From the NCBI GenBank assembly GCA_023388935.1, contig JAEWFG010000235.1:16353-40352 (forward strand): 24,000 nucleotides of DNA, in the 5' to 3' direction. Position numbers and translations under genes: made by a program. The DNA comes from Pseudomonadota bacterium (GTDB lineage: Bacteria; Pseudomonadota; Alphaproteobacteria; Rhizobiales; Xanthobacteraceae). The notes under the pieces are model-generated. The model was not told the DNA's origin. It saw only the letters and a list, made by a program, of their open reading frames with translations, and did not search any database. Within the stretch, counting starts at the first letter, position 1; each line of letters begins with the position of its first letter. This document shows positions 12,815 to 23,979 of this stretch, piece by piece.

Positions 12815-13801
12815 GTGGCCACATTCAAGGCGATCCGGATCGACAAGGCGGACAAGGGCACCACCGCCGCGCTCACGCAGTTCGACGAAGCCGAGCTGAT
12901 GGACGGCGACGTCACCGTCCGCGTGGAATGGTCGACGTTGAACTACAAGGACGGCCTCGCGCTCACCGGCAGGGCGCCCGTGGTGCGCCGTTTCCCGATG
13001 ATCGCCGGGATCGATTTCGCCGGCACGGTCGAGCAGTCCTCGCATCCGCAATGGAAGGTGGGGGACAAGGTCGTCTGCACCGGCTGGGGCATGGGCGAGA
13101 CCCATCTCGGCGCCTATGCCGAGAAGGCGCGGGTGAAGGGCGACTGGCTGGTCGCCTTGCCGCAGGGCCTGTCGGCCCGCGACGCCATGGCAATCGGTAC
13201 CGCCGGCTTCACCGCGATGCTTTCGGTGCTGGCGCTGGAGAAGCACGGTCTGTCCCCGAAGAGCGGCCCCGTGGTGGTGACGGGCGCCGCCGGCGGCGTC
13301 GGCTCCGTTGCCACCGCCGTGCTGTCGAAGCTCGGCTACCACGTCATTGCGTCCACCGGCCGCGCCTCGGAAGCGGACTATCTGAAAGAGATCGGTGCGG
13401 CCGAAGTCATCGACCGTAATGAATTGTCGGCGGCGGCCAAGCCCCTTGCCAAGGAGCGCTGGGCGGGGGGCGTCGACAGCGTCGGCTCGACCACGCTCGC
13501 GAATCTCTTGTCCATGACAAAGTACGGGGGCGCGATCGCGGCGTGCGGCCTGGCGGGCGGCATGGACCTGCCGTCGTCTGTCGCCCCTTTCATTTTGCGC
13601 GGAGTGTGCCTTCTCGGCATCGATTCCGTGATGTGCCCGATTGAGCCGCGGAAAGCCGCCTGGCAGCGCCTGGCGTCCGATCTGGATCGGACAAAACTGT
13701 CTGAAATCACTAAGGAAATTCAGATCGACGAAGTTCCTGAGTGGGGCGCGAAAATCCTTGCCGGCCAGGTCCGCGGCCGCATCGTGGTTAAAATTGTCTG
13801 A
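12815..13801 (+). CDS. YhdH/YhfP-family NADPH:quinone oxidoreductase (AcuI-type acrylyl-CoA reductase-like), MDR superfamily
   Basis: GTG start at 12815 with CAGGGAG upstream. The N-terminus ([10 protein letters not shown]...[20 protein letters not shown]) and the nucleotide-binding [12 protein letters not shown] are characteristic of the YhdH subfamily. Confidence 0.88.
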
Positions 13802-13882
13802 CGGCGTTTAGACTTTACCAACCAAGCTGCGCCAATGTTGCCTCAGTTGCCAAAACTAGGGTAGCGAGTTCCCTGTTTACCC

Positions 13883-13919
13883 GCTTGCAGGTTCCTGCAC
13901 GCCTGTGAAATTAATTTCA
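13883..13919. repeat. Two adjacent palindromes: GCTTGCAGG-TT-CCTGCACGC and the perfect 14-bp TGAAATTAATTTCA
   Basis: At 13883-13902, TGCAGG/CCTGCA arms flank a central TT, with partial outer extension. At 13906-13919, TGAAATTAATTTCA equals its own reverse complement. Both lie in non-coding DNA at the core/island boundary. Confidence 0.6.
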
Positions 13920-14195
13920 GGGACTTCGTAACTAGCGGGCCAGCCCCCATATTGCGCAGAACCGAGGCTTTTTGCGGCTGAACCTAACCAAAGTGTCACT
14001 GTTTTGAGCTATTTCAGCCTTGCGGAAACAAAACTGCTATGCGAGGGTTGCCTTACGGGAGATAAGTTTTGAGGTGAGAACGGCCTCCTCACGCGCCTGA
14101 TGATCGAACGTTCGTCAGGCAAAGTAGTCGGGTAAAACCGGCGAAGAGATCTGGGTGTGGGCATCCCAGCAAATCGAATTTCCCGAAACTATACT

Positions 14196-14227
14196 AAAGG
14201 GGCTCCGATCTAGGTCGGGGCCCTTTT
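14196..14227 (-). terminator. Hairpin terminator downstream of the 133-aa gene (bidirectional-looking)
   Basis: AAAGGGGCTCCGA-tctagg-TCGGGGCCCTTTT forms a 9-bp stem with one bulge and one G-U pair, flanked by A3 and T4. It starts 6 nt after the TAA at 14233-14235. Confidence 0.55.
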
Positions 14228-14232
14228 CAGTT

Positions 14233-14634
14233 TTACACTGCTACGACCCGCAAGAAGCCCTTTTGGCGGCGCGTTTGAGCCTTCTTTTCTGACACCATAT
14301 AGAAGCTCGAAATGTGATACTTGCCTTGGCCGTCAGGGATCAATTCTACTGCGACCAATATAAGCGACGCTATCGCTCCAACGTATCCCCAAATTTCGAT
14401 GCCGCTATTCGTGTGGTCATCCCCGATATAACGGGGATTGGAAATCACGCCGGCTAAGTGGGGGAGACACTTCGGGTAGTCATCCGGATGGCGCCTGTAT
14501 GCATGCCGCTGCGCGCCTCGCGTCAATATCACTTCGCCCGGCTCAAGCTCCGTCCCTAGGGTCTTATTGACCGTAGCTACCGGCAAGTGCCCGATGATCA
14601 AATCCGGGTTTTTGGGGGGGCGATGTTTTGACAT
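14233..14634 (-). CDS. Putative BECR-fold (PBECR-like) nuclease/toxin, 133 aa
   Basis: The ORF uses foreign codon usage. Its layout is VILTRGAQRHAYRRHPDDY, then LPHLAGVISNPRYIGDD, then LILVAVELIPDGQGKYHISSFYMVSEKKAQTRRQKGFL. This matches the pattern I associate with phage Barnase-EndoU-ColicinE5/D-RelE-like nuclease domains. The assignment is by eye only. Confidence 0.6.
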   Translation of the reverse strand: MSKHRPPKNPDLIIGHLPVATVNKTLGTELEPGEVILTRGAQRHAYRRHPDDYPKCLPHLAGVISNPRYIGDDHTNSGIEIWGYVGAIASLILVAVELIPDGQGKYHISSFYMVSEKKAQTRRQKGFLRVVAV

Positions 14635-14665
14635 GATAAATAGGCCGCCTCAGGTGGCGGCCTCT

Positions 14666-15253
14666 TCAATCCATGACACTGCTGGAAGCAGCCGGTGGCG
14701 CGGCTGCCTCTTCATTGCCGCCTTCGTCGGCGGCAGCGCTGTCGGCAGCAGATGAAGCTAGTTGATCCTTTTCCCCATTTTTCCGAGGCTTCCCGGCCTT
14801 TCGGAGGCCCGGATACCATTCGAGAAGGCCGAACAAGTCGGTGCTCGGTATCCTGACGAACGTGACTGTGTTCTTTCCGAGCGATATACGAATGCTTTGC
14901 TTCTGGCTTTCGGGGTTGGTGGTACCGAAGTCGTAAGCGCCCTGGATCAGGGCCTCTTGAATGTCCTCAACCGAAGCGGGCGATGGAGAGCCGCCGCTAG
15001 CTTCGGCGCGAGCCTCCATGATCGTGCGAACCGCCGTCGCAAATGGCTTGCCCAGAAAATCGCCCGGTTGGAACTGCTTCGCGGTACGACGCGCGCTCGC
15101 GTTAACGTCGCCTCCGCTCTCGACGTCGCCAAAGCGCGGTTCGACGCCCGACATTTCGTCATAGCCGTTGACCCAACGCTTTAGGCGCGCGGCCTCACTG
15201 ATGTGAAACGCGATCTTCTCAAGTGCCTTTGCTACAACGGGGTCATCAGCCAA
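14666..15253 (-). CDS. Protein with HARE-HTH-like winged-helix domain and acidic/Ala-rich tail, 195 aa
   Basis: TTG start at 15253 with GGAGGA 7 nt upstream. The segment FLGKPFATAVRTIMEARAE...SVEDIQEALIQ...ISLGKNTVTFVRIPSTDLFGLLEWYPG follows the HARE-HTH pattern. Compare the RpoE-delta N-terminal domain, which ends ...RF...WGLRSWYP. Confidence 0.6.
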   Translation of the reverse strand: MADDPVVAKALEKIAFHISEAARLKRWVNGYDEMSGVEPRFGDVESGGDVNASARRTAKQFQPGDFLGKPFATAVRTIMEARAEASGGSPSPASVEDIQEALIQGAYDFGTTNPESQKQSIRISLGKNTVTFVRIPSTDLFGLLEWYPGLRKAGKPRKNGEKDQLASSAADSAAADEGGNEEAAAPPAASSSVMD

Positions 15254-15255
15254 TT

Positions 15256-15279
15256 CTGCATCCTCCGATTGAGGTGCAG
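15256..15279 (-). promoter_or_regulatory. SD-sequestering hairpin immediately upstream of the TTG start of the 195-aa gene
   Basis: The minus-strand RNA is CUGCACCUC-AAUCG-GAGG(A)UGCAG, a 9-bp stem with one bulge. The GGAGGA Shine-Dalgarno lies almost entirely in the 3' arm, and the TTG start is 2 nt after the stem. Confidence 0.45.
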
Positions 15280-15700
15280 ATCATTTAGTGCAAAATGGCG
15301 GAACTCGCAAGTGTTCCTGTTAACTCCCCTGTGTTTACTCAAAGATTTTTATGATCTAATTGATATTGCTATATTTTTACTTTGGGAAAATTCCTTGGAG
15401 TTATATATTGTTTTGCGCGGAGACTGCGAGGACTTCGCCCGGCTAACCTTCGCCGTCCCGGCGCGACCCCTTGTCTGCCCGTTCGGCCAAGTTCTGCGGC
15501 GCCCTGATTGTTTCAGCGCATGCTTGTTCTCCAAAGAAAGCGCGGGCGCATGGGTCGGCGTTTACGGCTCCGGCAAATGGAATGGGCGGCCCGAGGGAAG
15601 GTGTCAGGGGGATAAGGCCCCCCGGTGCGCCCGATCATTGCCGGCGATCTAGCGGGGCGGGGGAGTACGGCTCCTAAACGACATCCATCAGCGGCCGGTT

Positions 15701-15973
15701 TTAAGAATTGTTCATGAGGGAAGCCCCAACCAACAGGGCAAAAAACGTAACCCAAGAAGCCACATTCGCCGAAACCGCTTGCCGACGAGATACCGCATAT
15801 AAAGATGCAGGAAGCCATAGAAGAGCAGTTACCAGCAGCGGCCTCAAACGACCGCGAACGGTATATTCCCTAACGTAGCCCGGCTGCTCGATGATTGGCT
15901 GACGCAAGTCCCGCCAAACGTAATGAAGGCCCGTCAGCACGTAGGCCAATCCGATCATCACTATAGTCATCAT
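15701..15973 (-). CDS. Small integral membrane protein (3 predicted TM helices), 90 aa
   Basis: MMTIVMIGLAYVLTGLHYV / LRPLLVTALLWLPASLYAV / VASWVTFFALLVGASLM. GC3 is low. Its ATG directly follows the TGA of an upstream start-less open frame (GGA TGA ATG ATG). Confidence 0.55.
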   Translation of the reverse strand: MMTIVMIGLAYVLTGLHYVWRDLRQPIIEQPGYVREYTVRGRLRPLLVTALLWLPASLYAVSRRQAVSANVASWVTFFALLVGASLMNNS

Positions 15974-16136
15974 TCATCCTGCCCCCGAGGCTGCCTTAGT
16001 TGGCCACCCCTCTCTCTGATTGGATCGTCCTTGCAGATCATCGAAGATACACGCCACCGTGTCGAGCGACAGCTTGCGCTGGAGATGCGCGCCAGACAGT
16101 GTTGCTCGAAGGCGACAGGGGACGTTAAGTCGGTAT

Positions 16137-17900
16137 TCACAGGATCGCCTGTTGCGTTGCCTCCCAGCGGCCTAGTCCGATCATGTCTCTCCTACCGTAG
16201 CTCATGGTTCCATGGGTAGCTAAAACGAGGCTGGTAAGCCCTTGTTCTTCCAGCGCTTCTTTGGCGGAACGCATCTTGGGAACAATGTCCCCGCCCATAA
16301 TCGCGGAAATCCGGGCATATGGCGTCACCTCAACCGGGCGCCGCTTGCCCGTCGGGTGCACCACGACCCGATCAAAGACGTTGCCGAAGGCTACACGGAA
16401 GGGCGCTACCTCAGCCTCGGTCAGTTTGACGTTGGTCAGGGCCGCATGCATGGCCTCGATGTTTTGGCGGAAGGTCTGGATCATGGCCGGATGCAGCGCC
16501 ACCACGTTGCCGCCGCCATCCGCCTCCGCCATCCGGACTTTATCCGCGAGCCCGGCTCGCTCTAGCTCCAGCGCCTTCAACTTCTCCTTCAAGGGAGCCA
16601 GCGGCATGTCCGGATCAGTCATCGCGGTAACGATGCGGTCAATCTTCTCTAGGGTCTGATTGAGCGCGCGCTGGGCGGCCCCAAGGTCGCGGCTGGCGGC
16701 TCTCTGCCGCTTCGTCCATTCCTTGTGGGCGCCCTCGGTATATGCCGCAAGGGCTTCGGCATCGAGATTGTGCTTGATGCCATGCAAGACGGTGGCCTCG
16801 ATCTCCACGAGGTCATAGCTTTTTGAGTTGGTGCAAACGCCCTTCTGGCGGGCATTGGTGCATCCGACCCGGGTATGCTCACCCGCTTTCGACCAGACGA
16901 TTGCCATGGTGCCGCCGCAGGCGCCGCAGAGGAGCCGGCCGGCGAGCATGTGATTGACGATGGATTTTTTATAGACGCGCGGAGCCGATCCTTGGCGGCT
17001 GCGCATTTTGCGGACCTCTTGCGCGCGATCCCATAAGTCCTGATCGATGATGCGCAGATGCGGGACTTGGACCGTCAGCAAATCCTCGGGGCGTCCCTTC
17101 TGCTTGTTACGCTTCTCTGTCTCGGGATTGATGACGCTGCGGTGACTATTCCAAACAAGTTCGCCGATATAAATGCGATTGCCGATAATGCCTTTCCCGC
17201 TTCCGCTGCCGGCAATGAAAACCGTATGGTTCCACTGGCCGCCTGACGGGCTCGGAATGCCCTCGCGATTGAGCCGAGCGGCGATGTCACGCACGGGTTC
17301 AAGGTTGGCGAACTCGGTGAATATCCGCTTGATGATCGGCGCGGTGTCCGGATCGATCTCGCGCTTGAACGACGTGCCCGCGACCTTGCGATGGCCATAA
17401 GCTGGCCTCCCGGGCATCAAACCCTCCCGGACCCTGCCATCCCATGCGCGGCGAAGCATATTACCAAGGTGCTTGCGAAACTCTTGGTTCATGATGCCGC
17501 TCATGCCGACGCGCATCGTGGTGAGCGGGCCCTCTAAGTCGATCAGTTCGATTTGCCGGTGCGAAATCCGCTTGAAGTCGCGAGCGCTGTCCGCGAGATC
17601 GCGCGACATGCGGGAAAGGCTCTCAATGATCACCGCCTCGAAAGTGCGGTCCCTTGCGGCCACGTCTCGCATCAACTCCAACCAGCCGGCGCGGCCTAGC
17701 GTGCCCGCCCCTGAGATCGCCTCGTCCTTGTAGTATCGAACGATCTTGTAGCCGTGTTGCTTCGCGATTTTTTCGCAAAGCTGAAATTGGTCATCTATTG
17801 ACCGGGCGCTTTGTCGGTCGCTTGAGTAACGCGCGTATGCCACCGCTTCTTTTGGTTTCGTCATTTTCCCCTTCATCGCCGTATTGACGTTGCCATTCAT
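16137..17900 (-). CDS. Large serine recombinase (integrase)
   Basis: The N-terminal resolvase catalytic domain is present (AVAYARYSSDRQ...IDDQ...DEAISG...SLSRMSRD). It is followed by the recombinase domain, a zinc-ribbon (LLCGACGG...VGCTNARQKGVCTN) and a coiled-coil region. The likely true start is ATG 17864 (MTKPK), with GAAGGGGA upstream, rather than 17900. Confidence 0.92.
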   Translation of the reverse strand: MNGNVNTAMKGKMTKPKEAVAYARYSSDRQSARSIDDQFQLCEKIAKQHGYKIVRYYKDEAISGAGTLGRAGWLELMRDVAARDRTFEAVIIESLSRMSRDLADSARDFKRISHRQIELIDLEGPLTTMRVGMSGIMNQEFRKHLGNMLRRAWDGRVREGLMPGRPAYGHRKVAGTSFKREIDPDTAPIIKRIFTEFANLEPVRDIAARLNREGIPSPSGGQWNHTVFIAGSGSGKGIIGNRIYIGELVWNSHRSVINPETEKRNKQKGRPEDLLTVQVPHLRIIDQDLWDRAQEVRKMRSRQGSAPRVYKKSIVNHMLAGRLLCGACGGTMAIVWSKAGEHTRVGCTNARQKGVCTNSKSYDLVEIEATVLHGIKHNLDAEALAAYTEGAHKEWTKRQRAASRDLGAAQRALNQTLEKIDRIVTAMTDPDMPLAPLKEKLKALELERAGLADKVRMAEADGGGNVVALHPAMIQTFRQNIEAMHAALTNVKLTEAEVAPFRVAFGNVFDRVVVHPTGKRRPVEVTPYARISAIMGGDIVPKMRSAKEALEEQGLTSLVLATHGTMSYGRRDMIGLGRWEATQQAIL

Positions 17901-18833: not shown

Positions 18834-19178
18834 TCAATTCTGCGCGTCGCTATCCTGACGACCTTGCGAACCCCTCGGCATCCGATCGAGCACTGCGCCG
18901 ATGATGCTCGATGGATTGCCGTGTTCGTCGCGCGTGACGGCGCTAATCAGGTTGTCGATCTGCGCGCCGTATTGAAGCGCCAGGGACAGGACAACCGCGC
19001 CATCACGAGCGATGGCCTCGATCTCCTGCCCCGACTTGCCGCCGGTCATGAACACCTCTCCGATCGAGCCGTCTTCATAGAAACCGAGCGTCACCGCGAA
19101 GGTTCGATCGAACCCGCCCCATTCGATCTCGAACGTTTCGGCATGGCGCCGCTGCGGCAAGCATCGGCGATCAGCCAT
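18834..19178 (-). CDS. TSCPD-like domain protein (stand-alone homologue of the class II ribonucleotide reductase C-terminal region)
   Basis: The start at ATG 19178 overlaps the previous stop by 8 nt. GSIGEVFMTGGKSGQEIEAIARDGAVVLSLALQYGAQIDNLISAV resembles the conserved ...EIFI..GK.GS......ISLALQYG... block. Confidence 0.55.
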   Translation of the reverse strand: MADRRCLPQRRHAETFEIEWGGFDRTFAVTLGFYEDGSIGEVFMTGGKSGQEIEAIARDGAVVLSLALQYGAQIDNLISAVTRDEHGNPSSIIGAVLDRMPRGSQGRQDSDAQN

Positions 19179-19419
19179 CTGGCGCTTCCTCTTTGGCAAT
19201 GAGCTTGCAGGCTTCAAGGAAGCCTTCGTCGGCCATCTTGAGGTTGTTGCGGCTGATGTAGAGCGAGAGCGAGAGCAGCGTAGCGAGGATTTCCGGCAAT
19301 ATGGTCTCCGGCGGATAGATCGGCGCAAGCCGCCGCTGCACCGTCAGCACCGCTTCGCCGATCGTCAACCGCATCTTCCGCTGCTCGTCGATCGTCAGCT
19401 CGTCATCATCCGTCATCAC
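19171..19419 (-). CDS. Hypothetical phage protein, 82 aa
   Basis: Its start codon region (GTG 19419 / ATG 19416) overlaps the stop of the upstream gene, and its own stop overlaps the downstream start by 8 nt. Codon bias is consistent with its neighbours. No family was recognised. Confidence 0.5.
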   Translation of the reverse strand: MMTDDDELTIDEQRKMRLTIGEAVLTVQRRLAPIYPPETILPEILATLLSLSLYISRNNLKMADEGFLEACKLIAKEEAPDG

Positions 19420-21238: not shown

Positions 21239-22195
21239 TCATTCCTCGGTGGTGGTTAGCGGTCGATTGGCTGGGAATCCGGGCCCGGCGACGGCTTCAT
21301 TGGAATGTTCTGCGGCAACTTCCGACTTTGCTTGCTTTGCTTTCGGCGCAGTCTGCGCGTCGATCTCGGCAATCGCGGCCTGCCCGAGCGCAGCGGCGTT
21401 GCCGCGCAGGCGCGACAAGAGACCGGGCGAAACATCGCGGGCCTGATCCGACGCAGCGGAGACGACGGCAAATCCGGCATCTTCCATTTCGTCTCGGCCA
21501 TACATGCCGGAGATCACGTCCGGGCAATACATTCGCGCCCAGTCTCTGCTCATGTTGTAGAACAGTTGCAGGTCGGCCTTAGTGTCCCACAGCGGCGACC
21601 CCTTCACTTTGCCTTTGTCGTTGTGGCCCGGGTGAAGTTTGCCGAGCGTGAATTGCTCCGGATGGGCATCGAGTGGCGGGAAGTAGCGCGGCTCAGTCTC
21701 GCCACGAAACGTCGCCCAAACCCGGCAGCGCCGCTTGTCGCCTTCGCCCTCATAAGCGACTTGCAAGCGCGTGGTGATCGGCGCGCGGGCCTCGACGATC
21801 GCGTGAAAGAATTGGCTTTCATAGGCGATGCGCTGCACTTTTTGCCCGCTCTGCCATTGCTCGACGAGATAGGACCAATTCGCCAGGGCGAGCGGCGACA
21901 CACCCAATTCCTGCGCGCGCAGGCAATTTGCGAAGCACATGCCGACGTTGCCTTGCATGTGCGGCGGGATCATCGCTCCAGCGGAGGAGAGCAGCTTTGC
22001 CGCGTCCACCATGTCGCGCAGGTTGGCATAGTCGACGCCGCCGCCGCGAAACAACTGCACGCTCTCGGTGCGCTCGGTGACGACTTTCTCCGCGTTACCC
22101 TCGACCAGATCGCGGCGTGTCACTCGGTCCGATGCGGCGGATTGCTGCGGCGGCGGCGATTGCGGACGCTCTGTCGTGTTGAGTTCGGTAATCAT
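21239..22195 (-). CDS. recT: RecT/Bet-family single-strand annealing recombinase
   Basis: The core (MCFANCLRAQELGVSP...IAYESQFFHAIV...SPLWDTKADLQLFYNMSRDWARMYCPDVISGMYGRDEM) is typical of RecT-family proteins. The start at ATG 22195 (MITELN) overlaps the exonuclease stop (TGATG). The 337-aa track version extends into the upstream gene. Confidence 0.8.
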   Translation of the reverse strand: MITELNTTERPQSPPPQQSAASDRVTRRDLVEGNAEKVVTERTESVQLFRGGGVDYANLRDMVDAAKLLSSAGAMIPPHMQGNVGMCFANCLRAQELGVSPLALANWSYLVEQWQSGQKVQRIAYESQFFHAIVEARAPITTRLQVAYEGEGDKRRCRVWATFRGETEPRYFPPLDAHPEQFTLGKLHPGHNDKGKVKGSPLWDTKADLQLFYNMSRDWARMYCPDVISGMYGRDEMEDAGFAVVSAASDQARDVSPGLLSRLRGNAAALGQAAIAEIDAQTAPKAKQAKSEVAAEHSNEAVAGPGFPANRPLTTTEE

Positions 22196-23106
22196 CACGC
22201 GGCCTCCCGCAATTGATATTTCACTCGATCGTCGATCGACTTCCGCGACCACTCAGGAAGATCGATATATTCGGCATCCGGGCGATCATCACCGGGCCCG
22301 GGCCAATTGCCGGACTGGTGGCATTGCCAGAAGATGTCGGCAGCCATGTCGTTGAGCTGCTGGCCGCGCGCCAAGTCCTCGTCTTTGAATGTGGTGGCGC
22401 GCACGCAATAGGGCGGCTTGTTCTCGACCCATAGCAGGGTGAACGAGTTGGCGGGAATGCCGAGCGCTCGCGCGCCTTCCATCACCATCGCGGCTTGCTG
22501 ATGATAGCCGAAATCGACGATGGAGCGCTGCAGATCGCGGTAGAGCACCGAGCTAGTCGTCTTGAGGTCGACGAAATCGCCGCTGTCGTTCGGCACCATA
22601 TCGGGCTTGGCTTTCTTGATGAAGCCGCGTCGGTCGCGCCAGAACATCGCGATCTCAGAGAGCCCGGTGAGCATGCCGCCCTTGACCAGCGGAAAATTGC
22701 CGAGCGAAATGATCATTCCTTTGGCGTGTCGTGCCATCGTCGGCGTGATGATCGTTTTGCCTGCCGCGATCTGATCGGCCTTCCACTTCTGCCCGATCTT
22801 GGTGCGGGCATTGTAGTCGGGAGGGCAGAGCGCGAATTCATCCTTGAACGGTTTTCCGGTGATCGCCGCATGGATGAAGCTGCCGAGCGCCATTGCTTCG
22901 GTTTCGTCCGTCTCGGGGCGGTCGGGATTGAATGGCGAGCGGTGATACGCGTGCGCAGGCGAAAAGCGGATCAGGTCGCGCAAGAATGAAGAGGAGACGC
23001 TCACCGCACCCTTGCAGACATCGGCGCGGTGATAGGCCGGCATCGGCATGTCGCTGACGGCGCAAGGTGCTTCGATAGGCTGATCTTTCCAGACGACTAA
23101 CTGCAT
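22195..23106 (-). CDS. PD-(D/E)XK exonuclease, RecE/exodeoxyribonuclease VIII-like
   Basis: GSFIHAAI...KPDMV...GDFVDLKTT...FGYHQQAAM fits the PDDEXK motif set (D...D/E-x-K, then QxxxY-like). It is paired with recT directly downstream. The start is ATG 23106, or GTG 23121. Confidence 0.75.
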   Translation of the reverse strand: MQLVVWKDQPIEAPCAVSDMPMPAYHRADVCKGAVSVSSSFLRDLIRFSPAHAYHRSPFNPDRPETDETEAMALGSFIHAAITGKPFKDEFALCPPDYNARTKIGQKWKADQIAAGKTIITPTMARHAKGMIISLGNFPLVKGGMLTGLSEIAMFWRDRRGFIKKAKPDMVPNDSGDFVDLKTTSSVLYRDLQRSIVDFGYHQQAAMVMEGARALGIPANSFTLLWVENKPPYCVRATTFKDEDLARGQQLNDMAADIFWQCHQSGNWPGPGDDRPDAEYIDLPEWSRKSIDDRVKYQLREAA

Positions 23107-23541
23107 TCTCGGTACTCGCACGCAAACCTGTAACGCTCTCGCGGGAAATGCTTCCTGTGAGTTCGACCGTGGGCGCGCGTTTAGATGACGCGCGCGATTT
23201 TACGTTTGATCAGTTGAGGGCCGTCCGCTGCAATTTGTGGCGGTCGGTGCACCGTTAGCCTTACGTGCTCGAATTCTTGGTTTTGCTTCCGAGCCCGCAA
23301 ATCATCCTTCCGCTTCGGGTGCGCTGTCAACAGGGATCGGCTGCCTCTATCGGACATTTTGACGCGAGCGAAACATGCGGGAACTTTTCAACCTGCGTGC
23401 GAGTGCAATTCTTCTCGCCAGTGTGTTGTTAGCCGCCGAGTTTCTATCGGCGTTTATTTTGCGTAAATCGCGGCGCCGACTTGCGCCATCGGCGAAGCAA
23501 CGTCAGACCATGATCTGTTTTGCTTTGCGAGTGGCGGCACA

Positions 23542-23979
23542 ATGCGAACCATCGAACGACCATGGAATGATGCGGACACGCGCGAGCTTCGCAAACTGTG
23601 GAGCGCTAACGCGCCGTCGTCGCTGATCGCCAATATGCTCTACCGATCACGAAGCTCGGTATGCGGCAAGGTTTCCAGATTGAAGTTGAAGCGCGAAAAG
23701 AAGCCGATCCTGCCGACGAAAGCGCGGGTGAGATCGCGCCAGGCGAAAGCGGCGCAGCCGCTCAACGTGAGCAACGCGCCAATGAAATTTGGCTCGATCG
23801 AGAGCTATGCGCCGAAGCCGGTCCCGTTCCTGAAAGCGAAGCAGTGGCACTGTCGAGCTGTGCTCGACGAAAAAGGCCGCGATGGCCTTGCGCTGTTTTG
23901 CGGCGCGCGGGCGGTGCGCGGGCACGCATGGTGCGAACATCACTTGATCCGTTTCACCACAGCGCAGGGGCGAGCCTAG
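23542..23979 (+). CDS. gcrA: GcrA-family cell-cycle regulator homologue (phage-borne)
   Basis: The N-terminal part PWNDADTRELRKLWSANAPSSLIANML..SRSSVCGKVSRLKL matches the GcrA N-terminal HTH (WT.E....L..LW..G.SAS.IA..LG.vSRNAViGKvHRLgL). The C-terminal part HCRAVLDE...ALFCGARAVRGHAWCEHH matches the conserved Cys/His C-terminus. Confidence 0.8.
   Translation: MRTIERPWNDADTRELRKLWSANAPSSLIANMLYRSRSSVCGKVSRLKLKREKKPILPTKARVRSRQAKAAQPLNVSNAPMKFGSIESYAPKPVPFLKAKQWHCRAVLDEKGRDGLALFCGARAVRGHAWCEHHLIRFTTAQGRA

Follow-up and report, generated by a model that had tools for sequence, protein, structure and literature searches.

A solo PBECR-family predicted RNase gene and its linked skipping-rope RNA beside an apparently unrelated winged-helix gene in an alphaproteobacterial genomic islet

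Genes and features of the islet

The DNA analyzed in this study, a 24-kb stretch of contig JAEWFG010000235.1 from a bacterium of the Xanthobacteraceae (hereafter, the window), contains a small islet with a gene for a 133-amino-acid (aa) predicted RNase of the PBECR3 family, a gene for a 195-aa protein predicted to contain a winged helix, and a structured small RNA (sRNA) that belongs to the skipping-rope family of Rfam. The two protein genes had been combined in a first-pass annotation, made from the sequence only, into a candidate two-gene conflict cassette. The features of the islet are as follows, where ORF denotes open reading frame and nt denotes nucleotides.

13860-14663, no strand assigned: variable cargo slot, from the stop codon of the 195-aa gene to the 3' flank of the core alcohol dehydrogenase (ADH) gene; loci L040 and L011 share the flanks
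13985-14063, plus strand: conserved stretch that flanks the sRNA on its 5' side, presumably its promoter or a 5' extension
14064-14177, plus strand: skipping-rope sRNA (Rfam RF02924, found with cmscan), convergent with the PBECR gene
14196-14234, plus strand: Rho-independent terminator of the sRNA, stem 14196-14208 / 14215-14226, then U-tract TTTTCAGTTTT
14233-14634, minus strand: 133-aa ORF with ATG start, solo PBECR3-family predicted endoribonuclease gene
14642-14663, minus strand: GC-rich spacer hairpin, AGGCCGCC-ACCTGA-GGCGGCCT, 7 nt before the PBECR ATG
14666-15253, minus strand: 195-aa ORF with TTG start; predicted coiled coil, linker, winged helix, and disordered acidic tail

Both ORFs lie on the minus strand with a spacer of 31 nt between them, and this arrangement, as well as the peptide segments quoted in the first-pass annotation, is present as stated there. 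The TTG start of the 195-aa gene is credible because GGAGGA is located 7 nt upstream and because L040, which holds the closest homolog of the 195-aa protein, has the same leader with ATG in place of TTG (L numbers designate the loci fetched for comparison). The GC content at third codon positions (GC3) is 0.63 and 0.64 for the two genes versus 0.84-0.85 for the adjacent core genes, which encode an ADH-type oxidoreductase and a major facilitator superfamily protein, and the prophage/phage-like genes take values between those of islet and core (0.72-0.75), which bears out the low-GC3 islet noticed earlier. Both genes are under strong purifying selection: against homologs, the ratio of nonsynonymous to synonymous substitution rates (dN/dS) is 0.03-0.06 for PBECR, and for the 195-aa gene it is 0.07-0.16.

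The PBECR protein, the skipping-rope RNA, and their linkage

The 133-aa protein matches the Pfam family PBECR3 (PF18812) with 38.1 bits against a cut-off of 30 (E 1.7e-9) over profile positions 4-113 of 115, and it also passes the cut-off of PBECR2 (27.6 versus 27.1 bits), and thus the PBECR assignment of the first-pass annotation was correct; the Pfam ids cited for the PBECR clade are PF18812 and PF18810. The AlphaFold2 (AF2) model of the protein has an alpha/beta layout with a predicted local distance difference test score (pLDDT) of 90.4. Across 36 PBECR homologs from two phyla, with identities down to 25%, H44, H49, and Y112 are invariant, the two histidines being those singled out previously, and conservation is at least 94% at E80, S110, and R122 (94% for S110 and 97% for R122). 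In the model, H44 is placed in the helix of residues 39-48 and S110 in the strand of residues 106-114. The PBECR passages of Iyer et al. (2017, PMC5512222) describe an active site composed of a His residue of the N-terminal helix together with a C-terminal Ser/Thr, and the conserved residues match this site. The catalytic-type residues are intact, and the protein is predicted to be a PBECR-family RNase. Scans with PADLOC, PHROGs, and NCBIfam gave phrog_29609, a family of unknown function, as the sole match of the 133-aa protein, and a tblastn search with PBECR against 50,697 phage records gave zero matches.

The sRNA just downstream of the PBECR gene was overlooked in the two-gene reading, although it is the element that is consistently linked to PBECR. 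It scores 42.3 bits on RF02924 (E 5e-8), for which the gathering score is 36.7, with all positions of the model covered (1-80 of 80), and is the only gathering-level Rfam match in the window. The terminator that follows it has a minimum free energy (MFE) of -24.0 kcal/mol (z = -5.6 versus shuffles), and its U-tract reaches into the stop codon of PBECR; on the opposite strand, transcription of PBECR may stop at this hairpin as well. All aligned copies keep this hairpin with compensatory changes, and compensatory changes were found at 14 of 44 predicted pairs when seven sRNA copies were compared. The RNA region is more conserved than the PBECR gene, its helices covary, and about 250 nt after PBECR are conserved with long invariant runs in every PBECR locus. 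The region 13985-14063, for which we infer a promoter role, is within a block that aligns at 74-80% with L012, L014, L015, L042, and L043, and homology ends at about 13985. A weak match to BjrC68, an sRNA of Bradyrhizobiaceae, was also observed at 14183-14233 on the plus strand (19.4 bits versus a gathering score of 39) and is probably just the terminator hairpin.

The skipping-rope motif was reported by Weinberg et al. (2017, PMC5737381) as a highly conserved RNA with a 3' terminator and no self-cleavage, which associates with one nearby protein domain in either orientation; the association was judged "compelling", and the conservation of the motif was said to suggest "a sophisticated biochemical function". 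In the main text of that paper, the associated protein is unnamed and no functional hypothesis is given, while the supplement may name it. Our literature search found no paper naming both "PBECR" and "skipping-rope".

When loci were ascertained through the protein, the RNA was found after PBECR in 14 of the 14 that have downstream sequence, 12 of them at the gathering score, in two phyla and at 25-140 nt from the PBECR stop codon. The plasmid loci among them came from an independent tblastn search for PBECR homologs of 25-42% identity, and five of these six (L051-L055) reach the gathering score. The copies are listed here with their scores and positions.

L012, L014, L015, L042, L043, and L037: 40.5-52.6 bits, just after PBECR, convergent
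L038 (37% identity): 19.6 bits, sub-gathering, same place and strand
Plasmids of Bacillus mycoides, B. thuringiensis, and Brevibacillus laterosporus: 59-73 bits, 110-140 nt after PBECR, same strand
Two Sinorhizobium plasmids: 47.5 bits, about 30 nt after PBECR, convergent
Azospirillum plasmid (L050): 31.2 bits, sub-gathering, convergent

In Alphaproteobacteria the RNA and PBECR are thus convergent, and in Firmicutes the two share a strand. Four loci of the family of the 195-aa protein (L005, L011, L040, and L041) contain no skipping-rope RNA at the gathering threshold. From the RNA side, a sequence pattern of the RNA core led to 22 viral contigs, eight of which have a PBECR-like ORF 59-116 nt from the RNA. 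Thirteen of the remaining 14 carry confirmed skipping-rope RNAs (39.8-67.4 bits); PBECR is absent from their fetched loci, and none of the 80 ORFs within 1 kb matches a Pfam PBECR family, and hence 13 of 21 confirmed viral skipping-rope RNAs are without PBECR. These orphan RNAs neighbor genes for ribonucleotide reductase, thymidylate kinase, HU, and primase-helicase, a tRNA array, a permuted transfer-messenger RNA (tmRNA), and a DUF3800-VIII RNA; one is found in an array of 13 tRNAs (L064, 645-2857), another directly before the permuted tmRNA (L072, 7076-7510), and a third beside the DUF3800-VIII RNA (L066, 1104-1366). In the loci examined, PBECR was never seen without the RNA, and the RNA was often seen alone in phages. 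The linkage is tight and essentially obligate for PBECR, and it extends across Alphaproteobacteria and Firmicutes and across prophages, plasmids, and islets.

Directly upstream of PBECR, three Bradyrhizobium lineages have a gene of an unannotated family of ~257-270 aa, designated here X260 (L012, 5212-5985; L014, 5125-5937; L015, 5124-5918; L036, 4146-4985), one member of which gives a weak match to AAA_assoc_C (E 2e-4). X260 could be a third component of the module in those lineages.

We consider that the functional unit at this locus is a mobile module of a PBECR RNase and a skipping-rope RNA, situated beside an unrelated winged-helix gene, and give this reading a probability of about 0.62. 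The module would be ~680 bp long (13985-14663) and would consist of the GC-rich hairpin, the solo PBECR3 gene, and the convergent, separately transcribed sRNA with its own terminator, and it would have landed in the variable slot directly after the stop codon of the 195-aa gene. Because the RNA occurs on either strand relative to PBECR, the two partners would interact directly as RNA and protein and not through antisense pairing; for the same reason, an antisense (type I-like) mechanism was rejected as the main model. The dependence between the partners is one-sided, in that PBECR never occurs without the RNA and the RNA often occurs alone, and on this basis the most likely arrangement would be that the RNA, encoded in cis, counteracts or regulates an RNase that is potentially toxic, with a logic like that of type III toxin-antitoxin systems, and the orphan copies in phages might be decoys or antidotes. 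This mechanism, phage decoys included, is put forward tentatively, and the odds are somewhat against it. A bolder proposal is that the module represents a widespread, uncharacterized class of RNA-protein toxin/antidote or defense systems, in which a BECR-fold RNase is checked or programmed by a single structured sRNA, and in which the orphan RNAs of phages, some of them within tRNA arrays, disarm the host PBECR as decoys; both parts of this joint reading share the same rather low likelihood.

Several points weigh against this interpretation. A search of the PBECR model against PDB structures gave nothing significant, the best BECR-type match being MqsR (E 0.45). The sRNA core alone has a modest folding z-score of -1.7, no tandem repeats of sRNA size were found in 13700-16300, where the sRNA is single-copy, and the region 13985-14063 contains no match to the sigma-70 consensus. 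The protein-side loci that are independent number only 14, and the orphan status of the viral RNAs was judged within the fetched flanks only. In addition, the two protein genes of the window could be cotranscribed if the spacer hairpin does not terminate transcription, and the conserved X260 gene upstream of PBECR in L012, L014, and L015 could be the real regulator or antitoxin there.

Another possibility is that PBECR and the RNA compose a ribonucleoprotein (RNP) with a non-toxin role, in which the enzyme has the RNA as its substrate, product, or cofactor, or takes its specificity from it, with no antidote relationship between the two; for example, the RNase may mature the sRNA, or the RNA may direct or activate the RNase against invader or host RNAs. 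This explanation draws on the same linkage evidence and on the "sophisticated" function suggested for the motif in PMC5737381, and the occurrence of orphan RNAs among phage tRNAs, tmRNA, and other noncoding RNAs fits an RNA with its own activity. According to the PBECR passages of PMC5512222, moreover, PBECR domains may be directed at particular mRNAs or at CRISPR RNAs and need not be general toxins. As for the asymmetry of the linkage, however, antidote/toxin pairs show it more typically than obligate RNPs do, and we regard the RNP explanation as unlikely, with a chance that is still appreciable. It is very improbable that the adjacency reflects mere comobility of shared cargo, with PBECR acting alone as a phage-derived effector. 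The module does reside at prophage ends and in plasmids and islets, where unrelated cargo accumulates, and solo phage PBECR genes are described without an RNA partner in the parts of PMC5512222 that concern PBECR, but hitchhiking fails to explain a linkage that holds down to 25% protein identity and in two phyla, whichever strand the RNA is on and whatever the neighboring genes, and the association with a protein was found "compelling" in PMC5737381 as well.

The 195-aa gene and the surroundings of the module

If the two protein genes of the window formed a unit, in which the 195-aa winged-helix protein partners the PBECR RNase as its sensor, antitoxin, or immunity protein, as the first-pass annotation proposed, they should be expected to travel together. 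Profile hidden Markov models (HMMs) of both families were run over 77 other fetched loci, and a gene of the 195-aa family (hereafter, the 195 family) was found in 39 and a PBECR gene in 24, with none having both; some short contigs are uninformative for this comparison, and about 20 distinct 195-family loci reach far enough. The neighborhood survey that had been suggested was thus performed, and homologs of the two genes were never together outside the window. Scans of genome contigs and metagenome contigs for the 195 family yielded only 4 and 19 loci, respectively, and the broad alignment of the family was too diverged to be used in scanning loci. The relatives nearest to the 195-aa protein (84, 81, 79, and 73% identity) are encoded upstream of genes other than PBECR: a 163-aa ORF in L040, an IS1-like DDE gene in the Bradyrhizobium japonicum loci L005-L010 and also in L041, which is listed apart from these, and in L011, from B. 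erythrophlei, a gene for a 193-aa protein with a precomputed match to YjaZ (PF27200) that was not reproduced by our own Pfam scan. Conversely, PBECR homologs of 75-82% identity are preceded by the ~260-aa X260 in L012, L014, and L015 and by nothing in L042, and a DUF2569 protein gene precedes PBECR in L043, in a prophage immunity region. X260 was considered as a relative of the 195-aa protein and was rejected, as no BLASTP or HMM similarity exists between them.

The homology of the islet is mosaic. In DNA alignments, 13985-14663 matches PBECR loci and 14664-15385 matches 195-gene loci; specifically, homology with the solo-PBECR locus L042 continues up to 14663, and that with the 195-gene locus L040 begins at 14664, so that the breakpoint coincides with the first base of the hairpin inside the 31-nt spacer. 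This hairpin, which marks both the mosaic junction and the PBECR module's 5' edge, is terminator-like in our scan, with eight pairs, seven of them G-C, and an MFE of -19.7 kcal/mol (z = -4.0), and is followed by a poor U-tract; no Shine-Dalgarno sequence is present within 5-9 nt of the PBECR ATG. Similar hairpins were seen in L015, L042, and L011, and many 195-family genes end in terminator-like hairpins. The flanks on both sides recur in L040 and L011, which hold different cargo, and the region between the 195-gene stop codon and the ADH gene is therefore a variable slot, which in three Bradyrhizobium genomes contains PBECR and the sRNA (13860-14663 of the window), the 163-aa ORF (L040, 2072-3143), or the 193-aa protein gene (L011, 6613-7636). 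A hairpin of the form AAGAGGCCGCC...GGCGGCC occurs at several slot junctions and also in L015 and L042. The window was searched for remnants of the X260, IS1-like DDE, YjaZ-like, and 163-aa genes, and none were found.

The two-gene cassette is therefore not supported by these comparisons, namely zero co-occurrence in 77 loci, homology that breaks in the spacer, and varying slot content. The codirectional genes 31 nt apart, the frequent presence of a DNA-binding-type gene upstream of PBECR (X260 in L012, L014, and L015, and a MerR-family gene in L055), the small ORF upstream of PBECR in L038, which overlaps it by 4 nt and in which a helix-turn-helix (HTH) was recognized by eye, and the acidic disordered tail, which in the model could in principle bind a basic RNase, would all suit such a cassette, but the homology breaks exactly at gene boundaries, orthologs of the 195-aa protein that are 79-84% identical live without PBECR and so give no sign of partner-specific adaptation, the protein has no similarity to X260, a terminator-like hairpin separates the genes, and PADLOC has no match, and we hold this explanation to be very improbable. 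The two protein genes seem to be chance neighbors, the 195-aa gene being unrelated to the PBECR module.

What the 195-aa protein itself is can be described in outline. Its AF2 model consists of a helix (residues 5-34), a low-confidence linker, a winged-helix core (residues 71-153) at pLDDT >90, and a disordered acidic tail; the winged helix has three helices and a beta-hairpin and ends in the pattern F-x-[RK]-[IL]-x(3-5)-[FW]GL-x-EWYP. The first-pass annotation had called this domain HARE-HTH-like, and of that call the winged helix stands, but Pfam HARE-HTH (PF05066) matches neither the protein, for which no Pfam family was found at E<=1, nor any of 134 relatives at E<=0.01. The sole Pfam family matched among the relatives is DUF7669, in five of 134, no homolog has a precomputed Pfam domain, and PADLOC, PHROG, and NCBIfam scans of the protein and the 134 relatives gave no useful match. 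In a Foldseek search with the model, forkhead domains came top (E 0.08, probability 0.98) and RpoE ranked 10 and 26. The profile of the 195 family matches GCN4-type coiled coils at the N terminus and, weakly, four delta chains of RNA polymerase (RNAP) at residues ~68-130 (E 0.01-0.5), and a profile of the domain only matches linker histone GH1 and FOXO (E 0.12-0.4) and delta at E ~1, in the wing motif only. The resemblance to RNAP delta thus seems marginal, and a HARE-HTH-like domain is a lead at most. The protein is probably an independent, DNA-binding, oligomeric accessory protein with a coiled coil and a winged helix, from a family that comprises 783 cluster representatives at E<=1e-3 and is wholly unannotated.

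Members of this family show a recurrent gene context elsewhere. Seven lineages (L003, L004, L005-L010, L017, L022, L026, and L041) have a conserved unit in which a gene of ~80-100 aa comes first, the 195-family gene second, and an IS1-like HTH+DDE gene (~300 aa) third (e.g., L005, 5487-8130), and in six of the seven, L003 being the exception, a tRNA-like element of 75-77 nt lies between the 195-family and DDE genes; the calls for it are Ser-ACT, Thr-CGT, and Ser-GCT, the last lacking a long variable arm. In L015, a tRNA-like element (Cys-ACA) precedes a related DDE gene. The L005 unit together with a DUF6894 gene is flanked by a 22-nt inverted repeat (GGTAATGCCTCAGTTTGAAATT, 95% complementary), and the unit could be an element of the insertion sequence (IS) family IS1 with passenger genes and a tRNA-like RNA. 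No terminal repeat of the L005 type was found in the window, nor is one evident in the other DDE-carrying loci, and a general IS boundary for the 195-family units is not established. A comM-like Mg-chelatase gene is an insertion hotspot (L044, 3987-9235; L010, 8180-10059): the copy of Bradyrhizobium sp. RD5-C2 is split by an island whose genes include an HTH_3 gene, an IS1595 transposase gene, and a member of the 195 family, and in one B. japonicum strain the same gene is broken by an element with a different large serine recombinase. The family also occurs in phages, because a 174-aa member is encoded in a 101-kb viral contig (L039, 4878-5402), where the neighboring ORFs of 357 and 630 aa are terminase-like and portal-like by position and size alone.

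Upstream of the 195-aa gene, the window continues into phage-like DNA, whose recognized genes are the following.

16137-17900, minus strand: large serine recombinase with Pfam Resolvase, Recombinase, and Zn_ribbon_recom domains
18834-19328, minus strand: TSCPD-domain protein, phage-type early gene
21239-22252, minus strand: RecT-like protein, phage-type early gene
22195-23121, minus strand: PDDEXK DUF3799 protein, phage-type early gene
23542-23979, plus strand: GcrA-like protein, phage-type early gene

The neighboring integrase mentioned in the first-pass annotation exists, with the correction that its Pfam domains are those of a large serine recombinase; the DNA to its right is phage-like (RecT, PDDEXK DUF3799, GcrA-like, and TSCPD proteins). 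The left end of the prophage-like insertion, including the recombinase, occupies 15386-17900 and contains a 90-aa ORF (15701-15973, minus strand), which encodes a hydrophobic-rich, possibly small membrane protein with no family match. Because synteny with the prophage-free Bradyrhizobium loci L040 and L011 runs to about 15385-15420, both the PBECR gene and the 195-aa gene are judged to sit outside the serine-recombinase prophage, in a pre-existing islet. The idea that the pair is "moron" cargo of the prophage was likewise rejected, given that prophage-free genomes are syntenic over both flanks of the islet. The end of the L040 synteny is roughly 130-170 nt upstream of the start of the 195-aa gene, and the insertion of the prophage may have changed the promoter region of that gene.

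Significance and comparison with known systems

The association of the skipping-rope RNA with a protein is already known and uncharacterized, and the points of interest in the present analysis are the identity of the partner as a predicted RNase and the asymmetry of the linkage. The motif has been an orphan structured RNA since 2017, and a PBECR partner and the asymmetry make its role directly testable; if the reading as a toxin/antidote or defense class with phage decoys is true, it would provide a function for an RNA motif whose discoverers offered no hypothesis. If PBECR proves toxic and the RNA neutralizes it, the module would be a new RNA-antidote system with an RNase fold unlike that of ToxIN, and a possible phage counterdefense would be defined as well. 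At the same time, the fall of the proposed two-protein defense cassette avoids a wrong annotation, and a large uncharacterized family with a coiled coil and a winged helix, often accompanied by a tRNA-like element and an IS1-like DDE gene, is brought to attention.

The 195-aa protein shares with the HARE-HTH N-terminal domain of RNAP delta (RpoE, PF05066) a winged helix followed by an acidic disordered tail, and delta chains are among its fold and profile matches. It differs in an extra N-terminal coiled coil and in the absence of a Pfam match, and the winged helices of forkhead proteins and linker histones match it equally well or better. Type II toxin-antitoxin systems with BECR-fold toxins include RelE, MqsR, and HigB, and the two protein genes of the window resemble their arrangement in that a small RNase gene is preceded, across a short spacer, by a small gene of DNA-binding type; in contrast to such systems, they are not conserved as a pair, their homology is mosaic, and a hairpin lies between them.

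Phage polyvalent proteins contain PBECR domains (Iyer et al. 2017, PMC5512222), and the PBECR protein of the window agrees with these in its profile match, its active-site His and Ser, its solo form, and the mobile-element context of its homologs. As points of difference, the copy in the window carries no fused MuF, portal, or further polyvalent domain, is located directly outside a prophage, and has a structured sRNA beside its gene, an element that the PBECR passages of the paper do not mention. As for the skipping-rope motif, the RNA of the window conforms to the description in the main text of PMC5737381, being above the gathering score, having a 3' terminator, and adjoining one protein family. 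What differs from that text is that the partner is named here as a PBECR predicted RNase and that the linkage is asymmetric, with orphan RNAs common in phages.

A parallel in gene layout is found in type III toxin-antitoxin systems, such as ToxIN, CptIN, and TenpIN, in which an endoribonuclease gene is located beside a small structured RNA gene with its own terminator, and which are carried on mobile elements. The differences are that the skipping-rope RNA is single-copy, with no tandem repeat array, and can be convergent with the protein gene, and that the partner is a predicted BECR-fold RNase in place of an enzyme of the ToxN-type fold. Because the defining tandem-repeat antitoxin RNA is missing and the RNase is not of the ToxN type, the module would work like a type III system, by analogy, without being a member of the class. 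Phage-borne copies of antidote-like RNA are a known escape route from ToxIN, and the asymmetry observed here, where PBECR is always accompanied by the RNA and phages often carry the RNA alone, would fit the same phage-escape logic.

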